A stretch of 36,557 nt of DNA from a bacterium (GCA_037147155.1 JBAWVR010000003.1:1-36557); one strand, 5' to 3'; positions 3,018 through 36,455 are shown, counted from the first letter of the stretch. Notes: generated by a model not told the origin, from the sequence alone. Numbers and translations: made by a program.

Positions 3018-3626
3018 TTAACGAGATATCAAACCGGTCCCTTTTATTTCAATCGTTTTATATTTTGTGGCATCACCAATCATACTAACTCGAAAGGTAC
3101 CATAATTATCTGTCGCGCCGGTCAGTTTTTTGAAAATCACTGTATCAGCACTACCTGCAAAGGAAAAATTTGTTAGAGCAAAATCTGATGAATCAGAAAG
3201 TAATAGTGTCTTATTGCTAGCACTGCCTTCAACGTAAGTTGGCGCCGGAAAAACCACTATTTTATTACTAAAAAACTTGACCCCGTAATTCAGTCCAGCT
3301 AAAGTTGTTGCTGAATTTGCCTTGACTTCCTCCAGGGTGATAGCAATCATGGAGGCCTCTTTTTCTAAACCTTTGGTTTTTTGTCCACCAAGAAAATAAT
3401 AACCAGCTAATGTTGATAAAACACCGATTATACAAATTACCACAAGCAACTCGACCAACGTGAACCCAGCAGTAGACTTCTGCCTTTGGTCGGTATTGAT
3501 GTTGATTTGGTTGACCATTACTTTTTCCCAGTTATTTGCCTTTAGTTTTGCCACAGCAAATATCCGACCTATTAGATAGAAGGCAGAAGTCACTAGCTGG
3601 GCAAATCCATAATTAATATTTTTCAT
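3018..3626 (-). CDS. Type IV prepilin-like protein (FimT/GspH-like) with in-frame palindromic insert in its leader
   Basis: G|FTLVELLVVICIIGVL motif; leader reads MKNINYGF-[45 aa]-GFTL. Confidence 0.85.
   Translation of the reverse strand: MKNINYGFAQLVTSAFYLIGRIFAVAKLKANNWEKVMVNQININTDQRQKSTAGFTLVELLVVICIIGVLSTLAGYYFLGGQKTKGLEKEASMIAITLEEVKANSATTLAGLNYGVKFFSNKIVVFPAPTYVEGSASNKTLLLSDSSDFALTNFSFAGSADTVIFKKLTGATDNYGTFRVSMIGDATKYKTIEIKGTGLISR
3465..3601 (+). mobile_element. Coding palindromic element (family A subtype) inside a prepilin leader, copy 2
   Basis: CCCAGCAGTAGACTTCTGCCTT...AAGGCAGAAGTCACTAGCTGGG. Confidence 0.85.
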
Positions 3627-6063: not shown

Positions 6064-7839
6064 TTAATCCTGAATTTTTAGATTATTTACCAACCCGTCC
6101 AAATCTCTTGTTTTTAACACTCCGCCAAAATTCTCATTATCCGTAGCACCAACTTTCCTCAAAATCAGTGTTTTATTGTCTGGCAATGGAAAAGCATAAA
6201 TTGTAATCTGCTTATCTGCAGAATCATCGCCCACTCTCATACAATCATAACCCTGATATTTTATAAAACCATCACCATAACCAATAATATTGGCATTAGT
6301 AACATAAGTCTCGAAATCTAAGTCGCTAACCACCACATTTAATCCACCTTCCTCAAAAACTGAGCAAGATTTATCTGCACCTATGGTTTTTCCGGCGCAG
6401 GTTTCATTCTTATTTACCCGGTCAGCCCAAACTTTTGGAACAATGTCGACCGAAGCCAGAGTAACAACTTCTGGCTGAATATCTTTATTATTTTCGCTTA
6501 CCCCATTAATCACAACAAAATCTTTTGGGTAATCGAAAGAAAAACCAAAACGATCACTACCATATGTTCCCTCTGGTATTGAATTAGCAGCTGATTTTTG
6601 TGAGATAACATTTGAGCTATTTTTTAATGATTCGTATATCAACTTTGTCGCATTAATAAGGACTGGTTCGGTACTTTTAGTGTACGTGACCATATCGCTC
6701 TTTCCTCCCCCGTAACAGGCTGTGGCACCGCTAACGTCCGTGCAGGCAGAAATCATTTTACCTCCTATGGAAATAAAATCCTTTGATGTTATAGGGACCT
6801 CATTGGCATAAATTGCGATACCAGAAACATAAGACGGTCCAGTTGCACCCAGGGTGTCCTTAACTTGTCTGACTATCCAATTTTGGGGATGTTTAAAAGA
6901 TATCATCAACTGTGAATCAGTATATGTTGTCCAGTCAGCAGTCTGGTTAGTTATGGCGGCTGCGGGTTTTTTGATAAAAGAATCAATAATCTTTTCTCCA
7001 ATCTTAAACTCTTCCGTCGCATTTTTTACACTATTGGGTACCTCTATATTCCACCAAGACTGGGCTGGTTTTTCAGAACTACCAAAATCAGCATGGTGTG
7101 TTATAGCAACACCACCAGGAGAATTTAAGCCATCACTAGACGACCAAAACATGATTCTGTAGCTAACATTAGTCCCCTTAAAACCTTCTAGATCGTTACG
7201 GGCAGGACTTTCAATTGTCACTGAAGGATATCTTTCTGTAATAATTGTTTTACTACTATCAACCACTTTCCATTCAGCTGGATACTTGAATTCGAAGCCG
7301 TATTCATCATTTACATATGCTTTCCAACCATCTGATAATTTTTTTGAACTAAATTTTAGAGAATCTATAATCTCTTGTTCAATTTTTTTATACTCGGCAC
7401 TTGATGCCGCTAAAGTTACTTTTATCGATTGATCTTTATAACAAATATCTTTGTATTCAAGTAGACCATATCCGACTGTCCAATCGGAATCAATACAATT
7501 TATATCTTTATTTACCGCCACACTATCTCTTGGATCACCCGTATCCGGTCTAGGTTTTTGTTTTGTATCAACAATTCTGATTTTGTTGTTATCTAAATTT
7601 TCTACCATCCAATCTGCAGGGTGTTTGATAACTAGACCATAATTTGTGTTCTCAACTGATAACCATCCAGGATATTTTTCTTCAGTAAGTTGCTGACCAT
7701 TTGCTGAAATTTTGGCTCTTTCTATTTGTTTTGTTTTTAAATACAACCCGCCCCAAACGATTAGAGCAATGGCACAAATAATTAATAAAATTGCTATTGT
7801 TAATTTTGAACCTTTATTTGTCTGTGTGTTTTCTTCCAT
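6064..7839 (-). CDS. Membrane-anchored surface protein with four PsbP-like (W..Y.N..YGF.F.YP..W) modules
   Basis: TM helix followed by YGLVIKHPADW, YGFEFKYPAEW, LMISFKHPQNW and FGFSFDYPKDF; start MEENTQ lies 6 nt after TATAAT. Confidence 0.7.
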   Translation of the reverse strand: MEENTQTNKGSKLTIAILLIICAIALIVWGGLYLKTKQIERAKISANGQQLTEEKYPGWLSVENTNYGLVIKHPADWMVENLDNNKIRIVDTKQKPRPDTGDPRDSVAVNKDINCIDSDWTVGYGLLEYKDICYKDQSIKVTLAASSAEYKKIEQEIIDSLKFSSKKLSDGWKAYVNDEYGFEFKYPAEWKVVDSSKTIITERYPSVTIESPARNDLEGFKGTNVSYRIMFWSSSDGLNSPGGVAITHHADFGSSEKPAQSWWNIEVPNSVKNATEEFKIGEKIIDSFIKKPAAAITNQTADWTTYTDSQLMISFKHPQNWIVRQVKDTLGATGPSYVSGIAIYANEVPITSKDFISIGGKMISACTDVSGATACYGGGKSDMVTYTKSTEPVLINATKLIYESLKNSSNVISQKSAANSIPEGTYGSDRFGFSFDYPKDFVVINGVSENNKDIQPEVVTLASVDIVPKVWADRVNKNETCAGKTIGADKSCSVFEEGGLNVVVSDLDFETYVTNANIIGYGDGFIKYQGYDCMRVGDDSADKQITIYAFPLPDNKTLILRKVGATDNENFGGVLKTRDLDGLVNNLKIQD

Positions 7840-7845
7840 GTAAAA

Positions 7846-7885
7846 ATTATACCACGAAAAATGAAATACTAATTTCATCTCGTGG
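7846..7885 (-). promoter_or_regulatory. Family D hairpin fused to an extended -10 (TGGTATAAT)
   Basis: CCACGAGATGAAATTAGTATTTCATTTTTCGTGGTATAAT, near-identical to 14514-14553. Confidence 0.7.
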
Positions 7886-7889
7886 CAAG

Positions 7890-10835: not shown

Positions 10836-10982
10836 TTCAAACCTCTCTTTCTTTTCTTTTTATAGGCATCTTTTGGATATTAAACACCAAAAGACAAACA
10901 AACTTCTTTATTTAGTAGAGCAAAAAATTGTTTTTATGTCAAACAAAAAACCTTTCTAGCGTTTTTTCTTTTTATAGGATTA

Positions 10983-11123
10983 CCCGGTTGTGAGCTTTGG
11001 CATCGTTTTTGAAAATTGTGCTTTGTAATTAAACTAAATGTCTAATTAGCAAAACAGACTCTGATGTAATATCAGAGTCTGTTTTGGGCAAAAACAATTT
11101 TAATGCCAAAGTCTACAACGGGG
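10983..11123 (-). mobile_element. Palindromic MITE-like element, family A copy 1
   Basis: Ends CCCGGTTGTGAGCTTTGGC / GCCAAAGTCTACAACGGGG; internal hairpin CAGACTCTGAT-ATCAGAGTCTG; abuts the fusA TAA. Confidence 0.75.
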
Positions 11124-13268
11124 TTATTTTCTAGATTCAATAATCTCTTTAGCAACGTTTGGTGGAACTACTTCGTAGTGATCAAATTCCATGGTTGAAG
11201 ATGCGCGACCTTCTGACATAGAACGGAGAGAAGTAACATAACCAAACATTTCAGATAGAGGCACCTTGGCATTGATAACTTTGTTCATACCACGATCTTC
11301 CATACCTTCAATTTGGGCACGCTTTGAACTCAAGTTTCCGGAGATATCACCCATGAACTTTTCAGGAGTAACAACTTCTACCTTCATGATCGGCTCAAGC
11401 AAGACAGGACGAGCGCGGTTGGCAGCCTCCTGGAAAGCTTGTGAAGCAGCAATCTTGTAAGCGATTTCGGATGAGTCCACATCGTGATATGAACCAAACA
11501 AAAGTTCACAAGAAATGTTTACCATCTTGAAACCAGCCACAATACCACGATCCATACCTTCCTTCACACCCTTTTCAACAGCTGGGATAAATTCCTGAGG
11601 AATCACACCACCCTTGATGGAATCAATGAATTCAAACTCTTCATAACGTTTAACGTTCTTTGAAACTTTTGCACCTTCAACCAAAGCTTCCATCGGCTTG
11701 ATCTTCAATTTAACGTGACCGTATTGACCCTTACCACCAGACTGTTTGATGTACTTGTGTTCAGCTTCTGCTTCACCAAGAATAGTTTCCTTGTAAGCAA
11801 CTTGTGGTTTACCAACGGTAGCTTCAACACCGAATTCACGCTTCATACGATCAACCAAGATTTCCAAGTGGAGTTCACCCATACCTGCAATAACGGTTTC
11901 ATTGGTCTCAGAGTCAGATTTGATTTTGAAAGTTGGGTCTTCATCAGACAAACGCTTCAAAGCCATACCCATTTTCTCGGAGTCAGCCTTGGTCTTTGGT
12001 TCAATCTTCAAAGTGATAACTGGTTCTGGAAATTTGATTTGGTCCAAAATAATCGGCTTGTCTTCATCACAGAAAGTGTGAGAAGTTTTAGCATCTTTCA
12101 AACCGACAGCAGCAGCGATTTCTCCAGCATAAACTGTTTCTACTTCTTCACGCTTGTCAGCCTGCATACGAACGATACGTCCCAATCTTTCTTTGTTACC
12201 AGTAGTGGAGTTGTAGAGATAGGTACCAGAAGAAATAGAACCTGAGTACACACGGAAGTAAGTCAATTGACCAACGAATGGGTCGGCTTGGAGTTTGAAA
12301 GCCAAAGCGGAAAACGGTTCTTCGTCGGAAGCGTGACGAACAACTTCATCACCAGTGACTGGGTCATGACCTTTGACTGGTGGAATATCAAGTGGAGATG
12401 GAAGATAATCAACAACAGCATCGAGTACCAATTGTACACCCTTGTTTTTCAAAGCAGAACCGGTCATAACTGGAACAATGTCGTTGGCAATAGTGGCCTT
12501 ACGCAAAACTCTCTTTAGGTCTTCTAGGGCTGGAACTTTTCCATCCAAATATTCAGTCATCATTTTGTCATCGTTTTCAACGATTTTTTCGATCAATATA
12601 TCATGATACTTCTTGGCTTCAGCCATCATGTTTTCAGGGATATCTTTTTCAATGATTTGATTGCCCATTTCACCTTCAAAGTAGTAGGCCTTCATTTTTA
12701 AGAGGTCGATCACAGCTTCAAAGTTGGATTCCTCACCGATAGGAAGTTGCATGCGCACGGCGTGTGGAGTCAAACGGTCAATAATAGACTGGAAGGAACG
12801 CTCGAAGGAACCACCGGTACGATCAAGCTTGTTGATGAAACAAATGCGGGGCACTTTACCATCATCAGCATAACGCCAGTTAGTTTCAGACTGTGGTTCA
12901 ACACCAGCCACACCGTCAAAGACGACAACAGCACCGTCGAGTACGCGCAAAGAACGCTTTACTTCAGCGGTAAAGTCGATGTGTCCAGGAGTGTCAATAA
13001 TGTTGAAACGGACTTTCTTAGACAAATCAGTACCCATGTAAGATGGGTTCCAGAAACAAGTGATCGCAGCGGAACAAATAGTGATTCCACGCTCTCTCTC
13101 CTGTTCCATCCAGTCGGTAGTAGTGTTACCATCGTGAACTTCACCAATCTTGTGAGATTGACCAGTGTAATACAAAATACGCTCTGAAGTGGTAGTTTTA
13201 CCAGCATCAATGTGCGCAATAATACCGAAGTTTCTGACCTTGTCTAATGAATAGTCTCTTTTTAACAT
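11124..13268 (-). CDS. fusA: Elongation factor G
   Basis: RNFGIIAHIDAGKTT, DWMEQERERGITI, DTPGH, NKLD, GMGELHLE and LLEPIM motifs. Confidence 0.99.
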   Translation of the reverse strand: MLKRDYSLDKVRNFGIIAHIDAGKTTTSERILYYTGQSHKIGEVHDGNTTTDWMEQERERGITICSAAITCFWNPSYMGTDLSKKVRFNIIDTPGHIDFTAEVKRSLRVLDGAVVVFDGVAGVEPQSETNWRYADDGKVPRICFINKLDRTGGSFERSFQSIIDRLTPHAVRMQLPIGEESNFEAVIDLLKMKAYYFEGEMGNQIIEKDIPENMMAEAKKYHDILIEKIVENDDKMMTEYLDGKVPALEDLKRVLRKATIANDIVPVMTGSALKNKGVQLVLDAVVDYLPSPLDIPPVKGHDPVTGDEVVRHASDEEPFSALAFKLQADPFVGQLTYFRVYSGSISSGTYLYNSTTGNKERLGRIVRMQADKREEVETVYAGEIAAAVGLKDAKTSHTFCDEDKPIILDQIKFPEPVITLKIEPKTKADSEKMGMALKRLSDEDPTFKIKSDSETNETVIAGMGELHLEILVDRMKREFGVEATVGKPQVAYKETILGEAEAEHKYIKQSGGKGQYGHVKLKIKPMEALVEGAKVSKNVKRYEEFEFIDSIKGGVIPQEFIPAVEKGVKEGMDRGIVAGFKMVNISCELLFGSYHDVDSSEIAYKIAASQAFQEAANRARPVLLEPIMKVEVVTPEKFMGDISGNLSSKRAQIEGMEDRGMNKVINAKVPLSEMFGYVTSLRSMSEGRASSTMEFDHYEVVPPNVAKEIIESRK

Positions 13269-13345
13269 ATATGTTTATAAAATGCGGGCGGTGCCGATAA
13301 ATTAATAATAAAAAGTGGCTAGCCCTAACTTTTTACAGATGGCAT

Positions 13346-13375
13346 AAGATTAACCTAAAAAGGCTAAAAAATCAA
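13346..13375 (-). promoter_or_regulatory. Candidate fusA promoter TTGATT-17-TAATCT
   Basis: Correct spacing upstream of fusA; the -35 directly abuts the end of a family A element. Confidence 0.45.
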
Positions 13376-13516
13376 CCCGGTTGTGAGATTTGGCGTCGTT
13401 TTTGAAATTGCGTTTAATTACCGTTTTTAATTATCAAATTAGCAAAACAGGTTTTAGCACTAAACTGCATTACATTTTAAACAAAAACAATTTCAACGCC
13501 AAATTCTACAACGGGG
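13376..13516 (-). mobile_element. Palindromic MITE-like element, family A copy 2
   Basis: CCCGGTTGTGAGATTTGGCGT...ACGCCAAATTCTACAACGGGG; 141 bp; shares ATTAGCAAAACAG and CAAAAACAATTT with copy 1. Confidence 0.75.
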
Positions 13517-13521
13517 TCAAT

Positions 13522-13650
13522 CCCGTTGTAGACTTTGCCATCAAAATATGAATTTTATCCAGGTTTGTGTATGATCTTTTTTTATAGCCAGGACGCAGTT
13601 TGCACAATTAGTCAGTTTTCGAAGAAAACAATGGCAAAGCTCACAACCGG
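13522..13650 (+). mobile_element. Palindromic MITE-like element, family A copy 3 (inverted relative to copy 2)
   Basis: CCCGTTGTAGACTTTGCCAT...ATGGCAAAGCTCACAACCGG; divergent interior. Confidence 0.7.
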
Positions 13651-13771
13651 ACAAAGGAGTTGGGGCGGGCCTGGATGGTCGAACCTTCCCAGGCTCGCCC
13701 TTGCATTTTCCTAGTTTAGTTCTAGACTGATTGTAAGTGTTCTTTTCTCAAAACTAACCAGGAGGTCCACA

Positions 13772-14302
13772 GTGAAAGAGAAAATCCCCATTGGTCAGAT
13801 CATCAGTTTCTATCTCCAGGCCATGCTCTGTTTCTACCAGAAAAAGGAGGAAGAGGAGGGCTCTGTCATCTTGCATTACAAAGAGACGGGGTATGATTGT
13901 TATGATTTTGAACATGACGATTTCAGACTTTGCCTCCGTGTCAATAATGACTGTCAGCTCTTGGAAATATTCCACAATGGAAACATCGTGTGGAATATGG
14001 TGGTTTGGCTCGAATATTTCGATAGAGTGGCGGCCGAGAAGATCATCGAAGAAGCCCTACTTCACAGCCTTTCCAGAAATGTTTGGAATGGCGGGCGCGG
14101 TATGACTCATTTAAAAGGTCAGCACGGAACATACAAGAATAATCCCAAACAAAATAATATGCTTTATTTTGGTGGCGAAGAAATCTTGTTTACTCCGGAC
14201 GGCAAAAACATCGGTCGCACCATGTATTTTGGCAAAGCCAATATTTACCTCGTATCACCTCCCGATATTGAAGGTCAGACAGCTTGCCCAGCAAGGTGGT
14301 AA
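13772..14302 (+). CDS. DUF5680-like hypothetical protein
   Basis: VWNM, AL..GGRG, Y.N, F.GEE.L and YFG pattern; SD AGGAGGT before the GTG start. Confidence 0.6.
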   Translation: MKEKIPIGQIISFYLQAMLCFYQKKEEEEGSVILHYKETGYDCYDFEHDDFRLCLRVNNDCQLLEIFHNGNIVWNMVVWLEYFDRVAAEKIIEEALLHSLSRNVWNGGRGMTHLKGQHGTYKNNPKQNNMLYFGGEEILFTPDGKNIGRTMYFGKANIYLVSPPDIEGQTACPARW

Positions 14303-14320
14303 AACAAAACAGCAGGCTAA

Positions 14321-14353
14321 CGCCGGCCAAGACTACTTGGCCGGCGCTTTTTT
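14321..14353 (+). terminator. Intrinsic terminator
   Basis: CGCCGGCCAAG-acta-CTTGGCCGGCG followed by a T-run. Confidence 0.85.
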
Positions 14354-14362
14354 ATGTTTTAC

Positions 14363-14547
14363 TACGAGATGAGCCCTCGAATTTCTTGCCCCGCGATTAA
14401 ATTCGCGTGCCCAGAGATGAAATTAATATTTCATTTTTCTGGGAATTTAATTTTACGGAAGCCTGCCCCGCGATGAAAATTATTTATTTTCATTTTGCGG
14501 GGTTCATGGCTTGCCACGAGATGAAATTCTGATTTCATTTTTCGTGG
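14363..14547 (+). repeat. Cluster of about 5 related short hairpins (family D), one nested inside another
   Basis: Units of the form stem-G-ATGAAA...TTTCAT-TTT-stem at 14410-14443, 14466-14502 and 14514-14547; outer unit 14391-14458; degenerate unit 14363-14388. Confidence 0.75.
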
Positions 14548-14559
14548 TATAATTTCCCC

Positions 14560-15045
14560 ATGGATAAAATAAAAATTAATGAAGTGGTAGAAGTATACTT
14601 CAAAGCTATGCTAGCTGGGTATTTTGGCGAAAAAAGCGGAGAAGTAACAATTGAAAAAATAAATAATAAGAAAACTCTGACATATAAAGATGGTAATTTT
14701 ATAGTAGTCGACAGCTACACCGACAATTTTGGCACAACTGAAATATCTTGGCGCGGTAATACTGTGTGGATGATGTTCTACTATGGTCATTACTCGACTG
14801 AGGCTATACCACATCTAATAGCTGCTCTCAAACCTCAATTAGAAAATAAAATTTGGCTTGGCGGACGTGGACCAAAACTTGTTGAGATGGGTAAATATTT
14901 CTATGAAAACATAGTGGAGGCTAATGACCCAATGGAGTTCCGTGGTATGGAATCAATCACCTCCCTCGGACTCGACGACAAACCAGTGGTTATTGGTTAT
15001 CATCGATATTGCGGCAAGGCGGTGGAAGAATTTATGGAGAGATAA
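14560..15045 (+). CDS. DUF5680-like hypothetical protein (paralog of 13772-14302)
   Basis: DSY..GTTEI..VWMMFYYG..GGRGP..FYEN..FRGMESI..YCG; N-terminus FKAMLAGY parallels LQAMLCFY. Confidence 0.65.
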   Translation: MDKIKINEVVEVYFKAMLAGYFGEKSGEVTIEKINNKKTLTYKDGNFIVVDSYTDNFGTTEISWRGNTVWMMFYYGHYSTEAIPHLIAALKPQLENKIWLGGRGPKLVEMGKYFYENIVEANDPMEFRGMESITSLGLDDKPVVIGYHRYCGKAVEEFMER

Positions 15046-15051
15046 AAACGC

Positions 15052-15086
15052 AAAACAAAAAACCGCGTGAGCGGTTTTTTGTTTTG
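15052..15086. terminator. Bidirectional intrinsic terminator
   Basis: CAAAACAAAAAACCGC-gtga-GCGGTTTTTTGTTTTG between the convergent gene and rpsG. Confidence 0.85.
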
Positions 15087-15103
15087 AGTATTCGTTTTTT
15101 AAT

Positions 15104-15574
15104 TTACCAAGCAAAATGTGCAAAAGCCTTGTTTGCCTCAGCCATCTTGTGAACGTTTTCCTTCTTCTTAACAGCTTCACCTTCGTTCTTACTTGCAGCA
15201 ATGATTTCAGTAGCAAGCTTGATGGCCATAGGCTGGCCTTTCTTGGAACGAGCGGCGCCGATGATCCAGCGCATAGCGAGAGCCTGACGGCGCTCTGGGC
15301 GGATTTCAGTTGGAACCTGATAGTTAGCACCACCAACACGGCGGGAGCGAACTTCGATAGTAGGAGTAGCATTCTTCAAAGCGGTTTCGAAAACTTCAAT
15401 TGGGTTTTCCACTTTTTCCTTCTCTTTGATGATCTCTAGCATTCCGTAAATTATTTTACGAGCAATGGTTTTCTTACCACGTTCCATAATATAATTTGTA
15501 AGTTTCGCAATCTTATCTGACTTGTATACAGCATCTGGAGCAATAGCAGCTCGGGCTTTAATTTTTCTACGCAT
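15104..15574 (-). CDS. rpsG: 30S ribosomal protein S7
   Basis: EVRSRRVGGANYQVP and HKMAEANKAFAHF; start MRRK. Confidence 0.99.
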   Translation of the reverse strand: MRRKIKARAAIAPDAVYKSDKIAKLTNYIMERGKKTIARKIIYGMLEIIKEKEKVENPIEVFETALKNATPTIEVRSRRVGGANYQVPTEIRPERRQALAMRWIIGAARSKKGQPMAIKLATEIIAASKNEGEAVKKKENVHKMAEANKAFAHFAW

Positions 15575-15587
15575 ATATTTTTCTTTA

Positions 15588-15673
15588 CCCGTTAAAGTTT
15601 TGGCTGACACATTAAGCATCTTGCTTAATGTCTGGAAAATCTATGATTTTCTATCAGTCAAAATTTTCTCGGG
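15588..15673. repeat. 86-bp structured repeat (family C) in the rpsL-rpsG spacer
   Basis: One mismatch to 17368-17453; CCCG...CGGG ends, an outer stem and two internal hairpins. Confidence 0.9.
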
Positions 15674-15684
15674 TGAATTAATAA

Positions 15685-16101
15685 TTATTTAGCTGCCTTT
15701 GGTCTCTTTGTACCATATTGACTGCGACCTTTTCGGCGACTCTCAACACCAGTAGCGTCGAGAACACCACGAACGATTGTGTAACGCAAACCAACATCCT
15801 TAACACGACCACCACGGAGTACTACTACGGAGTGTTCCTGCAAGTTGTGTCCCATTCCTGGGATATAAGCGGTAACTTCCAAGCCGTTAGACAACTTCAC
15901 ACGAGCGATTTTACGCACAGCGGAGTTAGGCTTCTTTGGTGTCTTGGTAGTAACTTTTGTACAAACTCCACGCTTAAATGGAGAAGCATAAAACTTCGGA
16001 CGGTTCTGAATCGTATTGAATCCACGCATCAAAGCCACCGCTTTGGTCTTGCGAGGTGTAGTCTTACGATTTCTTTTAACTAATTGATTAACTGTAGGCA
16101 T
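15685..16101 (-). CDS. rpsL: 30S ribosomal protein S12
   Basis: [25 protein letters not shown] and RGGRVKD. Confidence 0.99.
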
Positions 16102-16266
16102 TTACCTTTTGATTAAATTAATATAATTCTAATAATTTGCAACTCTTATTAAAATCATGCACGGGGATAACTTTACTATAAGATTTTGAAAAAAGCAAGG
16201 CCAGACAAAGAAAACAGCCCAGCAGAGGAAGAATGGACTGTTTTCTTCCCTGCCGGGCTGACTCTA

Positions 16267-16620
16267 TTAAATTTTTGTCTCCTTCAGTAGGGGCCATTTG
16301 TTCAGTTTAAAGAAACCCACACGCCACAGGGCCAATAAGATGAGTAAGCCGATAATTGGGATGTCCGGCTGACAACAAAGAATGATAACCAAATTTTTCA
16401 GTATCTGTGGGTTATCATCCGTGTAGTAAAGGATAACGCTAGCCACGCCAATCAAAAGGAGTAGGCCGAATTTGATCAGCCACAGGAAGTGGGTACTGTT
16501 ATATATCCCAAACTGTCCTCCCTCATAAACTCCCAAAAACTTGAGCAGGCCGTCGATGTTTACGAACACTATCGTTGCCAAACAGAGCCAATTGAGAACT
16601 TTGGTCAATTTGTTTTTCAT
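16267..16620 (-). CDS. Small hypothetical membrane protein
   Basis: About 3 hydrophobic segments; SD AAGGGG before MKNKL; promoter TTGACA-17-TAATGT at 16715-16743; downstream hairpin at 16215-16260. Confidence 0.6.
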   Translation of the reverse strand: MKNKLTKVLNWLCLATIVFVNIDGLLKFLGVYEGGQFGIYNSTHFLWLIKFGLLLLIGVASVILYYTDDNPQILKNLVIILCCQPDIPIIGLLILLALWRVGFFKLNKWPLLKETKI

Positions 16621-16847
16621 CGCAAATCCCCTTATTTCTTTTAGGAGCAACCTTGTCGAAGATCTCCCAAATCTGTCTTCTGGCACTCGCCAGAGCATAA
16701 TTTGGTTTTATTTAACATTATAACACTTAATATGGCCTGTCAAACATAAACCCCACCCTTACATCTCTGCTTGGGCGGGGTTTATCTATTAGTTTGTTTT
16801 TTCTGAATCTCCTATCTTCGTTAGGTTCTGATTTTTGACAGAGTTTC

Positions 16848-16972
16848 CTAAAGTTTAGATTTTTGCTGAAGTTCGAGGCGCGAGCGAGGCTTGCGACCAA
16901 GCTGTACAATTAGTACTGCGCGGGAGCAAACGGAGCTCGCAACGATGAAATTCGGCAAAAAGATAACTTTAG
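16848..16972. repeat. RPE-like palindromic element (family E) overlapping the stop codon of the response regulator
   Basis: Outer stem CTAAAGTT..TTTTTGCTGAA / TTCGGCAAAAA..AACTTTAG around a GC-rich core with a central GTAC-aatta-GTAC. Confidence 0.55.
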
Positions 16973-17355
16973 CTAGCTAGGATAATTTTGCTGACTTCCT
17001 GAAGGACTTCATCCATAGTTACAGTCGCTTTAATCAAGAAACTATATGCCCCCAATTCCTTTCCCTTCTGCACATCTTCACGAGAACCTAGGTTGGATAG
17101 AAAGACTACGGGAATCGGACGAGTGACGGGATCTTCTTTGATCTTCTTCAAAATCTCAAAACCATCCATATCTGGTAACATGATATCCAAAATTACCACC
17201 GCTGGCATTTCTTTCTTGATGAGCTCTACCCCACTCTTGCCATCACTAGCAGACAAAGCCATCAAACCTCCGGCATTTAGCTTCTTAGACACGAGACTAA
17301 TGAAGAAATTATCATCCTCAACAATTATTACTTTTTTGCCTTTTATATCTGCCAT
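16969..17355 (-). CDS. Single-domain response regulator (CheY-like receiver)
   Basis: IIVEDD, LDIMLPDMDG, FLSN and FLIK motifs. Confidence 0.95.
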   Translation of the reverse strand: MADIKGKKVIIVEDDNFFISLVSKKLNAGGLMALSASDGKSGVELIKKEMPAVVILDIMLPDMDGFEILKKIKEDPVTRPIPVVFLSNLGSREDVQKGKELGAYSFLIKATVTMDEVLQEVSKIILAS

Positions 17356-17367
17356 AAAATTTGTTTA

Positions 17368-17453
17368 CCCGTTAAAGTTTTGGCTGACACATTAAGCATC
17401 TTGCTTAATGTCTGGAAAATCTATGATTTTCTATCAGTCAAAATTTTTTCGGG
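17368..17453. repeat. 86-bp structured repeat (family C) in the 5' leader of the response regulator
   Basis: Near-identical direct repeat of 15588-15673; lies between a TATAAT (about 17476-17481, minus strand) and the ATG. Confidence 0.9.
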
Positions 17454-17504
17454 ATTATTATTATCTATACGTATATTATACCCCACCAGAGACTTTTAAC
17501 CAAA

Positions 17505-18125
17505 TTAGATTCCCAACATAAAAGCTGAGACAAACATTGCCAACTTGCCAATCCAATCACCCAAAAACCAAACGGCAATTACCACAATAACAATACTAGA
17601 TATATCGGCTCTTAAAATATAGGCCGCCCAAGTACTTGGTAGGAAAATTGAAATCACCTTGGAACCATCGAGTGGTGGTAATGGGATTAAGTTAAAAATG
17701 GCCAAAAATACGTTGGTAGTAACAATAATGACCATTATCTGATAAAAACCAACCATGACTGGAATAGCAAAGAAGTGAACTGCGATTCTAAAGATGATTG
17801 CAAAAACTGCTGCCAAAAGAAGATTACTAAGTGGTCCTGCCAAAGCTATGAGGGGCTCACCCCATTTACGATTTTGTAAATTATAAGGATTGTAAGGTAC
17901 TGGTTTGGCCCAACCAAACAGGAAACCTGAACCAGAAATAGCCAAGAGAAGTGGAACTATGATTGTGCCAAAGATATCAATGTGCTTTAGCGGATTTAGA
18001 GTCAATCTCCCCTCATACTTGGCTGTTGGGTCACCAAAGAAAAGAGCCGTGTAACCGTGGCATATTTCGTGAATAATTACGGAGAAGATAACGATAATAA
18101 ATGAAATGATGGATAAGCTGGTCAT
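17505..18125 (-). CDS. Site-2 protease family (M50) membrane metalloprotease
   Basis: HEICH, AGPLSN and FNLIPLPPLDG. Confidence 0.95.
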   Translation of the reverse strand: MTSLSIISFIIVIFSVIIHEICHGYTALFFGDPTAKYEGRLTLNPLKHIDIFGTIIVPLLLAISGSGFLFGWAKPVPYNPYNLQNRKWGEPLIALAGPLSNLLLAAVFAIIFRIAVHFFAIPVMVGFYQIMVIIVTTNVFLAIFNLIPLPPLDGSKVISIFLPSTWAAYILRADISSIVIVVIAVWFLGDWIGKLAMFVSAFMLGI

Positions 18126-18240
18126 GTTTAATATTAGTTATTTGCTATTTTTCGATTTTAATGATAACATGTTCGCACTGGAATCCCAAACGTCGCCAAT
18201 TAGGTGAACGACTGGCGACCAACAATTAATTTTAAAAACT

Positions 18241-18516
18241 ATGGCAAAAAAGTGTCCAATATTGAAAATAGGTACAATGATGGGTGGTGGTTACTCAAAC
18301 CGCACTCGTGCTACCCAGTACAACCCGACTGGTAAAGTTCGCCGTATGCCAAACTTGCAAAAGAAGAAGATTTACATTCCGGAGTTGAAAAAGTCCGTCT
18401 CAATGGTTATCTCTGCTCGTGCAATCAAGACTATTCAGAAAAACGGTGCCTACGCAACCCTAAAGAAAGCTGGTCTCATCCGTGGTGGCGAAGTAAAGTA
18501 CAAGAAGAATAAATAA
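18241..18516 (+). CDS. rpmB: 50S ribosomal protein L28
   Basis: MAKKC..RRMPNLQKKK..ISARAIKTI; highly basic. Confidence 0.88.
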   Translation: MAKKCPILKIGTMMGGGYSNRTRATQYNPTGKVRRMPNLQKKKIYIPELKKSVSMVISARAIKTIQKNGAYATLKKAGLIRGGEVKYKKNK

Positions 18517-18655
18517 CCCCGTTGTAGAATTTGGCGTCGAAATTGTTTTTGACGCGACAGACTCTGGTGAAATACCAGGGTCTGTTTTGTTATATTTTTC
18601 GTGATTATTAAAAAACGTCAATTTCAGAAAAACAACGCCAAATCTCACAACTGGG
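18517..18655 (+). mobile_element. Palindromic MITE-like element, family A copy 4
   Basis: CCCCGTTGTAGAATTTGGCGT...ACGCCAAATCTCACAACTGGG; abuts the rpmB TAA; internal hairpin CAGACTCTGGT-ACCAGGGTCTG. Confidence 0.75.
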
Positions 18656-18662
18656 TAAATTC

Positions 18663-21914: not shown

Positions 21915-22652
21915 TTACACTCCCCACTCTTTCTTAATCGCGTCCTCATCATCAGTACTCAAAGACTTGCGATACTTGGCACCCTTGGTACCTTTGACCC
22001 TAGCTTCACACTCAGCCCAAGTCTGATCTATATGAAACTGTCCATTAACCAAAGATAGATAAGAGTAAGCCTTGGCACCCGAGCGACTCTTGGCTTTAGC
22101 CAATTCTTCACGCACATTAATATCATGCACATCCACTGAATAATCTTTTTTCAAACCAGAAAATAATTTTGGCGGACGGCCAAAAGTAAAAGCTGTGGCA
22201 ATCTCGTCCACTCTTTCATTGCCCGGAATACCGGAGTGACCACTAACTTTTTGCCAGACAATCTTTTTACCATGGGCGTGTTTAGCTAGACCTTCCCACA
22301 ATTCGCGATTGGACACATCTTTCTTATCAATAGTTTGCCAACCTCGTGCCATCCAACCATAAACCCATTTAGTAATACCATTGATCACATAGGCCGAGTC
22401 AGTATGAATCACAATTTCTTTATCGGTGGCACCAATTTCTTTCAAAGCTTCTAGAGCGGCAGTAATCTCCATGCGATTGTTGGTTGTATGTTTATCACTA
22501 GCGCCTTTTTCCACAACTTCATTGGTGCGACTACCTTTAGGGAAAACTACCACAGCTCCCCAACCTCCAGGACCAGGATTACCAGAAGACGAACCGTCAC
22601 AAAAAACGATTATTTTATTCTCTACCATTTTATTTTTATATTCTTTTTCCAT
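21915..22652 (-). CDS. rnhA: Ribonuclease HI with C-terminal viroplasmin-like hybrid-binding domain
   Basis: CDGSSSGNPGPGGWG, TTNNRMEI, TDS and GHSGIPGNERVD; C-terminal TWAECEARVKG..AKYRK; start MEKEYK 7 nt after TATAAT. Confidence 0.9.
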   Translation of the reverse strand: MEKEYKNKMVENKIIVFCDGSSSGNPGPGGWGAVVVFPKGSRTNEVVEKGASDKHTTNNRMEITAALEALKEIGATDKEIVIHTDSAYVINGITKWVYGWMARGWQTIDKKDVSNRELWEGLAKHAHGKKIVWQKVSGHSGIPGNERVDEIATAFTFGRPPKLFSGLKKDYSVDVHDINVREELAKAKSRSGAKAYSYLSLVNGQFHIDQTWAECEARVKGTKGAKYRKSLSTDDEDAIKKEWGV

Positions 22653-22659
22653 TGCGTGA

Positions 22660-22695
22660 ATTATAGCACGAAAAATTCGAGGACTCATCTCGTGC
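22660..22695 (-). promoter_or_regulatory. Family D hairpin fused to an extended -10 (TGCTATAAT) upstream of rnhA
   Basis: GCACGAGATGAGTCCTCGAATTTTTCGTGCTATAAT, 7 nt before the ATG. Confidence 0.65.
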
Positions 22696-22766
22696 CTAGC
22701 CATGAACTGAAAAAAAACAAAACACCGCATCTCCTCCGAGATGCGGGTTGCCAAGTGGATGATTCC

Positions 22767-29267: not shown

Positions 29268-30422
29268 TTAATCTATAATAATACTATTTCGTACACACTT
29301 ACTTCCCGCTCGAGAATAAGTATAGGTGGTATCAGCCGGCTTACAAGTCCAATCACAAGCCTTTAAATCAACATCGCTAGTAGAAACTGGCACGAAGGTC
29401 CAATTCTTGTCTGTAGCACTAATAGGTAATTTATCACTCAGAATTCTAACGTAGCCAGTTGGGGCCGAACCAAGACAAGACTTTGTTGTTGCTCCACCAG
29501 TAGTTCCACCGGTTGTTCCACCACCAGTCGTACCACCTCCACCAACGGGGATATCCACACAGTTATTACCAACTTTTTCTTGTCCCGCACCACAAATAAC
29601 AATGTTGGCACAACCATTACCCACAACCTCTTGTCCGTCAGGACAAACTCTTACACATTCACCATTAACCAATTCTGCCCCTTCAGGACAAACACATTGG
29701 CCATTATTATTTACTAATCCTTCCCCACAGGCCGCACAATAGCTTCCAGTATCACTAGGAATTATTTTATCACCAGCACAACAATCACCATTATCATCGC
29801 GCGCTTCGTTATTTCCACAACTACCGCCAGGATTGTTGGTGGTGGTATTCATAAAATCAATCCAACCAACAATACTACCACCCCAGGCATAACCAAGAAG
29901 ATGATTATTGGTTCCACTTTTTACTCCATAACTACTTTTTCCATCAATAGTTTTACCGGCTAGAGAAATCCAACCATCCCAACCATCAGTTCGGGAAACT
30001 GTGCCACATCCACCATCGATACTACCAGCACAGGCTCTGGCCCAACCAGAAAGATTCTGATTTGAGTCAATTTGGGCAGTACATGTTCCGTCTGGACAAC
30101 CAGTCAATTTTGTAGAGTCGAAAGTTATCCAACCAATGTTGTCAGACCAAACATATCCACACAATTCTCTAGATATAGCATTGTCTGTGGCAGACTTTTT
30201 CACCCCAATACCGTATTCTCCTTGGTTCTCACCTAAATGTATCCAGCCAATAGTATCAGACCAAGCATAACCCCCCAGGCGTCCTGTTAGGACACCACTG
30301 CAACCGGGCAAGTTAGTATCAGCTTCGACACTATTTATTCTCACAGAACTCAAAAACCCACCGGCAAAGATGGATATAATCAGGAGAAAAAATGTAGTTA
30401 GAAAGATTTTTTTATTTTTCAT
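29268..30422 (-). CDS. Secreted GYxWSDxIGWI-repeat protein with Cys-rich repeats
   Basis: Signal peptide; GYAWSDTIGWI, GWDGWISL and C-x-C-P-x-G repeats; short paralog of 31819-36399. Confidence 0.8.
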   Translation of the reverse strand: MKNKKIFLTTFFLLIISIFAGGFLSSVRINSVEADTNLPGCSGVLTGRLGGYAWSDTIGWIHLGENQGEYGIGVKKSATDNAISRELCGYVWSDNIGWITFDSTKLTGCPDGTCTAQIDSNQNLSGWARACAGSIDGGCGTVSRTDGWDGWISLAGKTIDGKSSYGVKSGTNNHLLGYAWGGSIVGWIDFMNTTTNNPGGSCGNNEARDDNGDCCAGDKIIPSDTGSYCAACGEGLVNNNGQCVCPEGAELVNGECVRVCPDGQEVVGNGCANIVICGAGQEKVGNNCVDIPVGGGGTTGGGTTGGTTGGATTKSCLGSAPTGYVRILSDKLPISATDKNWTFVPVSTSDVDLKACDWTCKPADTTYTYSRAGSKCVRNSIIID

Positions 30423-30515
30423 TGATTGCTAAAATGTTTTTAATAAATGGTTTAACTTTGCTAATAGATAAAGTTAAATTACTTGCTAAATTATAACACT
30501 CAAACAATAAAAAGA

Positions 30516-30553
30516 AAAACCGCGAGCCTGACTTTCGTCGGACTCGCGGTTTT
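30516..30553 (-). terminator. Intrinsic terminator
   Basis: AAAAACCGCGAG...CTCGCGGTTTTT. Confidence 0.8.
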
Positions 30554-30567
30554 AATATTACCAAACT

Positions 30568-31791
30568 TTAATATATAACTACTACTCTTGTGTTATACAT
30601 CTTTTCGCTTGAATAGCCACTGGCTGTAACATTCACAGTGTATGCAGTGCCTTCTACCACCGGTATTGTTCCCATTAAAGTAAATGCTCTACTTCCACCA
30701 ACATTATTCAACACATTTGACCGCGCATAATCAAGCTCAGTCCCCCCAACCGACAAAACATATTTTATTGTTGCGGTGTAATTACCAGAAATATCACCTT
30801 TTGCCAAAATCAAAACATTTCCAGTCTTGGAAGCAGTAAAAGTGTATGTATAAGTCATCGGATTTGTTATATAAGTATCATAAGCTGCCTGCTTATCAGA
30901 TATACTAAAACCTAAACCTTGATTGCCTGTGTTCAGCGCCTGCCAACTTCCCACTCCATTTGCATCAGATGTCAGAACCTTACCCGCCGCTGGTGCACCA
31001 CCAGTTATTTTAACTTGACCAGCCACTTCCAGTGTAGCTGTTGGATTAACTACCCCGATACCAACATTACCTCCGAGTGGGTTCAATGTTATTGGCCAGG
31101 CAGTATTATTACTTACCTTAGCTTGCATCCAGTATGCCCAAGGGCTAGCAGTGAAGACACCTTGACTCAGCTCAACTCCAGCCGTTTCAAACGAGATAGC
31201 TGATGGCGCCCCAAAGGTCAGAGTTGGGTCATAGTTTGTAGTACCTGCATTAACATCTAATTTAGAATTTGGCGCATTGGTTCCGATCCCCACATTTCCT
31301 GTAGTATAATAAATATTTGCACCAGAAGTAGTCCATTGGGATGCAGATCCGAGACTTTTGGTGGTAACCCAGTAATCAGCCGAGGTGGTCGAAAACATAT
31401 CTCTCTGAGATTTCCAATAATCTGTAGAAGTAGTACCCCAACCATTATTACTAATTGAACCATTACCCACACAAACCCCATTAATTGCCACGCATCCACC
31501 GGTCAAATTAATTCCTCCAGAAAAAGTGGCAGTCGCATTGGACGTGGAGAAAATTCGTCCACCGAAAAGGGCGTTACCATTTACTTGCAATTTTGCCCTG
31601 GTCGGTTGATCAAGCAACATGTCATCACCCAATATCAAATTACCTAGCTTTGTTTGTTCAACATCTCCAGCATGGATTGGAGTTGGCAAATTATCTTCTG
31701 GTGGAACACCGGTCGGACCAGTCCAAGCATACAGGTATCCAGCACCAACAAGGAGAGAAGTAACAAAAAGTAATTTAATAGTGTTTTTCAT
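30568..31791 (-). CDS. Secreted tail-fibre/adhesin-like protein
   Basis: Signal peptide; AWTGPT module, GNVGIGT..P...L.V.G repeats and GKVLTSDANGVGSW. Confidence 0.75.
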   Translation of the reverse strand: MKNTIKLLFVTSLLVGAGYLYAWTGPTGVPPEDNLPTPIHAGDVEQTKLGNLILGDDMLLDQPTRAKLQVNGNALFGGRIFSTSNATATFSGGINLTGGCVAINGVCVGNGSISNNGWGTTSTDYWKSQRDMFSTTSADYWVTTKSLGSASQWTTSGANIYYTTGNVGIGTNAPNSKLDVNAGTTNYDPTLTFGAPSAISFETAGVELSQGVFTASPWAYWMQAKVSNNTAWPITLNPLGGNVGIGVVNPTATLEVAGQVKITGGAPAAGKVLTSDANGVGSWQALNTGNQGLGFSISDKQAAYDTYITNPMTYTYTFTASKTGNVLILAKGDISGNYTATIKYVLSVGGTELDYARSNVLNNVGGSRAFTLMGTIPVVEGTAYTVNVTASGYSSEKMYNTRVVVIY

Positions 31792-31818
31792 AATTTAATA
31801 ATAACAAATAATGATTCT

Positions 31819-36399: not shown

Positions 36400-36455
36400 T
36401 TACGACTTGGTGCTTATAAAATACTACAAAAATTATAACATTTATTTAGAAAAGA

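Follow-up and report, generated by a model that had tools for sequence, protein, structure and literature searches.

A Miniature Inverted-Repeat Family in Patescibacteria and Its Possible Mobilization by a Minimal GIY-YIG Nuclease

What moves a repeat that carries no gene of its own? The question is raised by a contig of 36,557 nucleotides from an ultra-small bacterium (GCA_037147155.1, JBAWVR010000003.1:1-36557; the whole stretch is hereafter called the window), in which four copies of a repeat of 130–141 bp (copies 1 to 4, in order of position) lie between positions 10,983 and 18,655. The two ends of each copy are related but unequal, one bearing GTGAG and the other GTAGA, and the interiors vary. 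A first-pass annotation of the sequence had proposed that the copies are mobilized as a folded single strand by an enzyme encoded elsewhere, with integron attC sites and the repetitive extragenic palindromes (REPs) handled by REP-associated tyrosine transposases (RAYTs) of the HUH type as its analogies. On balance, we think that a structure-specific GIY-YIG nuclease moves a tiny inverted-repeat element and that the copies are derivatives of it without a gene. The evidence for this reading, the points that weigh against it, and the alternatives are set out below.

A Dispersed Repeat Family with Two Unequal Ends

The window is contig C3 of an assembly of 876,459 bases in 90 contigs (39.5% G+C), which we label G000. 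A degenerate end motif matched the window eight times, as four inward-facing pairs, where shuffled sequence gave 0.03. Across the whole assembly, 35 pairs matched both end motifs with zero mismatches; 34 of them are 130–141 bp long, and one is 323 bp. These copies are spread over 25 contigs in both directions. The asymmetry described in the first-pass annotation is a property of the family: 33 of the 35 have one CCCGGTTGTGAG end (the A end, with GTGAG) and one CCCCGTTGTAGA end (the B end, with GTAGA). The exceptions are C4:11848, where both ends carry GTGAG, and C11:1991, where the position-4 base is exchanged between the ends. Interiors define a main subfamily of ∼139 nucleotides (nt), whose members have a perfect internal hairpin, and a second one of ∼131 nt, besides several singletons; two pairs of copies at separate loci are 100% identical. 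The short copies contain no open reading frame (ORF), are dispersed, and are bounded by terminal inverted repeats, which are the features of a miniature inverted-repeat transposable element (MITE). Rfam had no match in the window at the gathering score. When five loci were scanned at an E-value threshold, the sole match overlapping an element was a subthreshold one to isrK (30.9 bits vs. 50), and a genuine tRNA was found to adjoin one element.

A Long Copy Encloses a GIY-YIG Nuclease Gene

The single 323-bp copy (G000:C1:40763-41085, on a contig other than the window’s) encloses an ORF of 93 amino acids (aa), whose start lies 26 nt in from the B end and whose stop falls within the inner A-arm. 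Its product matches the Pfam GIY-YIG family at 56.9 bits (cut-off 22.6), and among proteins of solved structure, the UPF0213 members BH0048 and EF2693 are closest to it in sequence, with SLX1 next. The top 12 Foldseek matches to its predicted structure (predicted local distance difference test, pLDDT, 85.2) are all UPF0213, Slx1, or HIGLE proteins (1zg2, 1ywl, Slx1 entries, and 7wme; TM 0.50–0.63). Residues Y4, Y6, Y18, G20, R28, and E52 are invariant among eight homologues that share 54–64% identity. By sequence and predicted structure, the 93-aa protein is a minimal GIY-YIG nuclease of the SLX1/UPF0213 branch. A long copy enclosing a nuclease gene, which the first-pass annotation had recommended looking for, therefore exists, and its proposal of non-autonomous copies served by an enzyme encoded elsewhere agrees with gene-less short copies and a nuclease gene enclosed in a copy on another contig.

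Homologues of this nuclease occur in 81 of 101 related genomes, at one to nine copies each. We inspected the ends at the best 30 of >250 nuclease matches in the order and at 29 loci from an even sample of the phylum (201 genomes, 56 of which have a strong match). Both A- and B-type ends, 316–332 bp apart, are present at 10 of the 30 best loci, which are the G000 copy and its nine closest homologues, one per genome (54–67% identity; all in the top 11). The same ends, with the same AG/GA swap between them, bracket 5 of the 29 phylum-sample loci, in other families. Most of the remaining 20 order loci have perfect inverted repeats of their own, 13–20 bp long and 278–298 bp apart, many of them beginning CCC.GT; this suggests a whole superfamily of GIY-YIG mini-elements. 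Loci with their own repeats are L351, L354, L356, L361, L362, L364–L366, L368, L370, L371, and G000:C5:26317-26590, and ACCCTGTTAAATAA, CCACGTGAGATAA, and ATCCCGTTAGAGAT are examples of the inverted repeats at distant small GIY-YIG genes.

Long and short copies also go together within genomes. Their end variants agree, both kinds carrying GTTGTGAG in G000 and both carrying GTGAG in G048. Short copies occur in 9 of the 10 genomes that have a close nuclease homologue and in 19 of the 91 others (Fisher p 3e-5, the related genomes not being independent). A long host ORF reading in the same direction ends no more than 21 nt upstream of 6 of the 10 long copies, and for two of these six host ORFs the TAG stop is supplied by the element’s own end.

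The Terminal Stem Is Compensated and Carries a Fixed Tandem Mismatch

We aligned the stems of 33 short G000 copies (31 distinct rows) and counted 22 pairs. Columns 4 and 11 are unpaired in 31 of 31 rows, columns 10 and 12 are always G.U, and 7 of the 22 counted pairs have changed on both sides, broken cells being nearly absent. Pairing cells amount to 87.4% in the true register vs. 35–53% with the partner slid by one to three columns. Adding 80 copies from 12 other genomes gave 99 distinct end pairs from 13 genomes. In this wider set, 91–99 of the 99 end pairs are Watson–Crick at positions 1–3, 5–9, and 13–21, where a position may show as many as four compensated pair types. Ninety end pairs have G:T at position 10, and 90 have A:C at position 11. 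At position 4, 49 of the 99 are Watson–Crick, so the mismatch there belongs to this genus only. The general feature of the 21-bp stem is a GA/AG swap between its two arms, and because GA in one arm replaces AG in the other, a tandem G:T and A:C results on either strand.

The earlier idea that fixed unpaired bases mark the fold is right in that some stem sites are conserved as non-Watson–Crick; they form, however, a tandem mismatch inside the helix rather than extrahelical bulges, and position 4 is limited to the genus. Folded as single-stranded DNA, the four window copies have z scores of −3.0 to −10.3 relative to shuffles. The two strands have similar RNA folding energies, with means of −45.5 and −43.6 kcal/mol and neither strand favored, and the variable stem positions show few wobble or A:C cells on either; neither measure singles out a functional strand. 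A compensated stem with fixed non-Watson–Crick positions fits a folded substrate, which may be a single strand, a cruciform, or an RNA.

Flanking Repeats and an Empty Site Indicate Movement

An exact direct repeat of 3–5 bp flanks 95 of 115 copies (3 bp, n = 31; 4 bp, n = 51; 5 bp, n = 13), compared with about 11% when left and right flanks were paired at random; the statement in the first-pass annotation that no clear target duplication is visible does not hold. The outer bases of the flanking repeat are complementary in 69 of the 95 (T..A in 61 and C..G in 8) vs. 26% in a control. The repeats are also oriented to the A/B polarity of the element, with TCAA 14 times vs. TTGA 2, TTCA 9 vs. TGAA 0, and TTA 14 vs. 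TAA 2, counts that are not all independent, some loci being possibly orthologous between species. Every window copy has a flanking repeat, reading on the + strand TTA, TCAA, CAA, and TAA.

Part of the window is contained in 10 freshwater or lake metagenome runs from six studies, and we compared contigs from four of these runs with it. In one contig from run X6, position 13371 is joined to 13517, so that 145 bases (141 + 4) are skipped and one TCAA is kept; the joint has 4 ambiguous bases, 39 letters on its shorter side, and a depth of 3.1. This contig is a precise empty site for copy 2, with copy 3 filled in the same contig, and it supplies the filled-versus-empty comparison that the first-pass annotation had suggested. 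Further contig joints inside or between copies probably reflect paralogous copies and were not used as evidence. Two genomes of the same genus were also compared for empty sites, and in these, coding DNA is 81–84% identical and the spacers cannot be aligned.

Copies seem to insert preferentially beside an existing element end: copies 2 and 3 of the window stand in tandem, and a second such pair lies at G000:C11:1991-2256. ORF-bearing copies L347 (G048), L350 (G074), and L352 (G096) each have a short gene-less copy 4–5 nt away.

Placement Relative to Host Genes

In 18 of the 35 G000 copies, the B end stands at distance 0 from the stop codon of an ORF ≥80 aa long (16 TAA and 2 TAG), and in five further copies, it lies −1 to +2 from a stop; the A end never abuts one. 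TAA stops make up 537 of the 8,214 noncoding TTA/TAA sites in G000 (6.5%), and against this background, 16 of 35 copies on a TAA stop is far above chance (p about 1e-10). Stop abutment is not general: very few of the 80 copies taken from 12 other genomes are ≤6 nt from a stop.

At five loci in other species, the element’s last G is base 1 of a tRNA-Gly on the same strand, and the first tRNA bases are repeated on the element’s far side. This placement reflects either site-specific insertion that has recurred or one old insertion that the species share. The tRNA-Gly–adjoining loci are L178 and L216 (CCC) and L204, L210, and L225 (UCC), and also L133. Compensatory change in place at shared tRNA-Gly loci was dropped as evidence, because interiors and lengths differ and repeated insertion at the same site is possible. 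In two genomes of the same genus, an ordinary G+C-rich terminator hairpin, and no element, lies behind the orthologue of the window gene at 11124–13268.

Distribution of the Family

A covariance model of the family has matches at E 0.001 or better in 28 of the 101 related genomes. Twenty-one of these are among the 52 relatives in the same family, some lie in other families of the order, and all are genomes of 0.4–1.1 Mb. In other genera, the ends read CC.GGTAGTGAA.TTTG.CAT and CC.CGTAGTAGA.TTTG.CAT. A prokaryote-wide scan with a highly degenerate pattern and one genome per species led, among the matches listed, to 80 fetched loci, of which the model confirms 16. Those whose record titles name a group are all Patescibacteria (Minisyncoccia, Saccharibacteria, Kaiserbacteria, Taylorbacteria, Parcubacteria, and Paceibacterota); the titles of the others say only “bacterium.” The confirmed loci include short forms of 62–76 nt in which the same 21-bp stem surrounds two small G+C-rich hairpins, and none of these short forms is a tRNA. 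Viral contigs gave 83 pattern matches, and the model confirmed 0 of the 80 viral loci examined.

A Proposed Mechanism

In the mechanism that we propose, the full element would measure about 316–323 bp and have the same two ends and a single gene, for a GIY-YIG nuclease of ∼90 aa, with one such element in G000. The nuclease, supplied in trans, would recognize the ∼21-bp terminal stem after it had formed by single-strand folding or cruciform extrusion, and the tandem G:T and A:C at positions 10–11, one helical turn from the stem base, would act as a recognition or polarity mark. Insertion would duplicate 3–5 bp of a target whose outer bases are complementary, mostly T..A, as a symmetric staggered cut would make them. 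The main subfamily of G000 would insert on TAA stops with its GTAGA end on the gene side. Because the ATG of the full element lies 26 nt behind the host stop in the same direction, host transcription would express the nuclease. SLX1 cuts branched and flap DNA, according to the titles of Protein Data Bank (PDB) entries among the Foldseek matches, and by analogy, a mismatch-marked stem is a plausible SLX1-like substrate. We infer that the nuclease is the mover purely from its association with the element.

Several observations weigh against this mechanism. We know of no GIY-YIG protein that acts as a transposase, and GIY-YIG nucleases are not known to form a covalent intermediate, so that joining would need host enzymes. 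A 3–5 bp duplication is equally produced by DDE transposases, and the strong orientation of the flanking repeats is not explained by a symmetric cut. The long copy in G000 has no flanking repeat, and the AG/GA polarity relative to the ORF is reversed in 4 of the 10 long copies, for which recombination between the arms could be the cause. Short and long copies in G000 share only their outer ∼16 nt, their inner stems being TTTGGCATCG and TTTTCAACT, respectively. Nineteen of the 28 element-bearing relatives have no nuclease homologue at ≥58% identity; one of them, G002, has 17 model matches, and its best nuclease E-value is 2.6e-9. Further, the sample of inspected ends, as given above, is small relative to the number of nuclease matches, the empty site is a single contig at depth 3, and the stop-codon abutment, which is not general outside this genus, has a precision that the mechanism leaves unexplained.

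A broader proposal, which we find possible and offer tentatively, is that these elements form a new class of prokaryotic transposable element across Patescibacteria. At ∼320 bp, it would be the smallest autonomous DNA transposon known; its 90-aa SLX1-like GIY-YIG transposase would read the mismatch-marked folded stem and cut it structure-specifically, host repair would join the ends, and some lineages would home behind stop codons or in front of tRNA-Gly and so ride on host expression. We found no description of inverted-repeat–bounded GIY-YIG elements in prokaryotes in a literature search whose scope lay outside most subscription journals. Literature searches for the element end sequence as text and for MITEs in the candidate phyla radiation (CPR) returned nothing relevant.

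Other Enzymes and Alternative Explanations

Among five element-rich genomes searched, none has TnpB, four have one gene for a tyrosine recombinase of the Phage_integrase family, and all five have large serine recombinases, which nothing ties to the element ends. An IS200/IS605-type insertion sequence (IS) was rejected as a candidate on the grounds that the short copies have no ORF, the long copy encodes GIY-YIG, TnpB is lacking in all five genomes, and inverted and flanking repeats are present.

The repeats might have spread by some other means, with the GIY-YIG gene a mere passenger, for example a free-standing gene of the homing type that uses the repeats as landing sites. GIY-YIG genes are classic selfish homing genes (PMC1564403, in part), many element-bearing genomes lack a close nuclease homologue, and long and short copies have only their outer ends in common. 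We nevertheless regard a passenger as unlikely: the ORF occupies the entire interior of the long copy with no short-copy interior remaining, other nuclease clades bear inverted repeats of their own, the protein is a minimal domain without a separate DNA-binding module, and the spread of the repeats would be left unexplained. Less probable again is an ordinary MITE moved by a DDE transposase, with the autonomous insertion sequence either missing from these genomes or left out of their assemblies. Terminal inverted repeats with a 3–5 bp duplication and a palindromic-ended target are typical of such a MITE, and G005 has DDE_Tnp_1 genes and G072 has rve genes, one of these lying next to a copy. 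However, G000, the genome with the most copies, some of them identical, has no match to DDE_Tnp_1 (PF01609) or rve (PF00665). Over the 101 genomes, the exact end pattern occurs in pairs only 45–145 nt apart, apart from one at 268 nt, and reveals no long transposase-bearing copy; thus, neither the profile search of G000 nor the 101-genome scan found a DDE transposase bracketed by element ends. Nor would binding of duplex ends account for compensation at those stem positions that vary.

A structured element that serves the host, as a 3′ stem–loop, terminator, or tRNA leader under transcript selection with mobility past or incidental, would account for the 18 of 35 copies directly behind a stop codon, for the five tRNA-Gly loci, for the terminator-like internal hairpin, and for the ordinary terminator hairpin that same-genus orthologues of the window gene carry in the element’s place. 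Movement, by contrast, is shown by identical copies at separate loci, the flanking repeats, and the empty site; there is no G.U excess on either strand at the variable stem positions and no energy preference between strands. As a complete explanation, host service is improbable, and it is compatible with nuclease-driven movement as a secondary role. We give the least credence, and very little, to a REP-like or REPIN-like element handled as folded single-stranded DNA by a RAYT-like HUH Y1 protein. G000 does have such a gene (C15:31-771, 247 aa) with HUH and Y motifs and a same-genus homologue at 46% identity (tblastn, E 9e-59), although it scores below the cut-offs of both Pfam Y1_Tnp (17.9 bits vs. 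23) and NCBIfam REP_Tyr_transpos (35.8 bits vs. 80). Y1 homologues occur in 68 of the 101 relatives, at up to 12 copies, and the flanking repeats are oriented and subfamily specific, as in sequence-specific single-strand insertion. Yet the palindrome that flanks the Y1 gene, and that the gene also contains in frame, is another one (CTTGAGGCCGGACCTCAAG, then TAG or TAA), and by the model, no element copy lies within 1.5 kb of three Y1 loci from other genomes. Y1 homologues are found in 20 of the 28 genomes that bear the element and in 48 of the 73 that lack it, so their presence does not track the repeats; G008, G019, and G079 have 9–11 element copies each and no Y1 match; and the element ends pair across the element instead of forming self-palindromic hairpins. 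The REP/RAYT analogy of the first-pass annotation is thus not sustained.

The layout of the C15 Y1 gene with CTTGAGGCCGGACCTCAAG is REPtron-like. G000 has four full copies of this palindrome and a partial one at the contig start, at sites C15:1-800 (L248), C22:13442-13460, and C51:3023-3041.

Comparison with Known Systems

Bacterial MITEs include Correia, RUP, bcr1, and ERIC. The present family resembles MITEs with their parent insertion sequences in its gene-less inverted-repeat copies, target duplications, longer enzyme-bearing copy with shared ends, and compensated folded stem. It differs from them in that the long copy is only ∼320 bp, in that the sole gene encodes a ∼90-aa GIY-YIG protein and not a DDE, HUH, serine, tyrosine, or DEDD transposase, and in the fixed tandem mismatch of the stem. 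With REP/REPIN–RAYT systems, it shares small extragenic palindromes that persist in a lineage and GTAG in the ends. Within REP families, subfamilies can differ by alternative complementary residues in the stem, and GTAG termini often give neighboring ORFs their stop codons (PMC3733652, in part); to the extent of that source, neither trait is unique to the present family. In contrast to REPs and REPINs, the element ends pair with each other and are flanked by duplications, and the RAYT-like gene lies beside a palindrome of its own and does not go together with the element across genomes.

The integron attC core is GTTRRRY. Elements and attC sites are alike in size, in being imperfect palindromes whose center varies and whose unpaired positions are fixed, and in standing directly behind ORF stops. 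The element copies, however, are dispersed over many contigs in both directions and form no arrays; GTTGTGA, with T at its fifth base, does not fit the core; and the genomes with a tyrosine recombinase gene, four of the five searched, have only one each. The attC analogy drawn in the first-pass annotation is accordingly set aside.

Homing genes of the I-TevI type, whether free-standing or carried by introns, are also selfish GIY-YIG nuclease genes with several copies per genome. Homing enzymes cut the empty allele and not their own ends (PMC1564403, in part). Here, unlike in homing genes, inverted repeats and flanking duplications bracket the gene, gene-less derivatives exist, and the protein has no DNA-binding extension. 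SLX1 and UPF0213 proteins (PDB 1zg2, 1ywl, 4xlg, 7cq4, and 6seh) are the best matches in sequence and fold, and the cutting of branched and flap DNA by SLX1 is the activity that the mechanism would need. Prokaryotic Slx1-like proteins are minimal stand-alone domains treated as candidates for housekeeping repair (PMC1564403, in part), and we found no link in the literature between SLX1 or UPF0213 and inverted repeats. Insertions that encode GIY-YIG proteins have been described in rRNA genes of CPR bacteria, the same phylum as the element’s host (PMC11270868, in part); the term “inverted repeat” is absent from the main text of that article.

If the nuclease does move the elements, it would add a new enzyme chemistry to the short list that drives prokaryotic DNA transposition, and autonomous mobile elements would have a new minimum size. 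The widespread minimal UPF0213/SLX1-like proteins, which reach nine copies in genomes of 0.5–1.1 Mb (81 of 101 relatives), would gain a function, and the GIY-YIG–bearing insertions found in rRNA genes of CPR bacteria could be explained. As a recognition signal, the tandem mismatch fixed in a compensated stem is clean and testable, and the combination of a 90-aa enzyme, a 21-bp structured site, and insertion right behind stops may interest tool builders. Should the nuclease prove only a passenger, the repeats would still be useful as a marker found across the phylum, both in strain typing and in assembly checks, the latter because they probably break contigs.

Copies and Other Repeats in the Window

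All four copies are present where the first-pass annotation had placed them, copy 3 gaining one base on each side from an outer T/A pair. Copy 1 (10983–11123, +, 141 bp; model 137 bits, E 4.7e-27) has its A end on the left and its B end on the right, and of the four, it is the one with the single-strand fold z score of −10.3. Its left flanking repeat, TTA, occupies 10980–10982; the right TTA at 11124–11126 is, on the − strand, the TAA stop of a 714-aa ORF (11124–13268, −), at distance 0 from the B end. The perfect internal hairpin CAAAACAGAC...GTCTGTTTTG at 11050–11086 is common to the main subfamily. Copy 2 (13376–13516, +, 141 bp) lies between TCAA repeats at 13372–13375 and 13517–13520 and is the copy missing from the metagenome contig. 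Copy 3 (13521–13651, −, 131 bp; model 88.1 bits) belongs to a separate subfamily, is flanked by CAA (+ strand) at 13518–13520 and 13652–13654, and has its B end opposed to that of copy 2. The B end of copy 4 (18517–18655, −, 139 bp) adjoins the TAA stop (18514–18516) of an ORF at 18241–18516, and TAA recurs at 18656–18658; its internal hairpin (18556–18586, +) is followed by a T-rich tail and is terminator-like in the direction of the upstream gene.

The first-pass annotation had counted two further copies in pilin genes. The covariance model does match at both places, but only weakly: a diverged inverted repeat at 2361–2497 (−), in the 5′ region of a prepilin gene and at most a possible member of the family, scores 25.1 bits (E 0.0036), and its paralogue at 3465–3601 (−) scores 20.5 bits (E 0.033). 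The two prepilin paralogues (ORFs 1887–2534 and 3018–3626, − strand) share a 181-nt 5′ region that holds this repeat. Its GTAGA-type end encodes QKSTAG, the last leader residues before FTLIE, at the predicted G|F cleavage site.

Other repeats also occur in the window. A module of ∼42–60 nt, TTGCCACGAGATGAAAT...ATTTCATTTTTCGTGGTATAAT, lies directly upstream of ORF starts at 7830–7889, 14405–14569, and 22641–22722; it forms a hairpin between −35-like and −10-like hexamers and may be a shared promoter or operator. A 109-nt direct repeat at 15580–15688 and 17360–17468 (93% identity, 1.8 kb apart) is found near two ORF starts on the − strand. At 29600–36400, a 1526-aa ORF (31819–36399, −) and its neighbors contain many short GGACAA..ACACA internal repeats, which suggests a large repeat-rich, probably Cys-rich, surface protein family.

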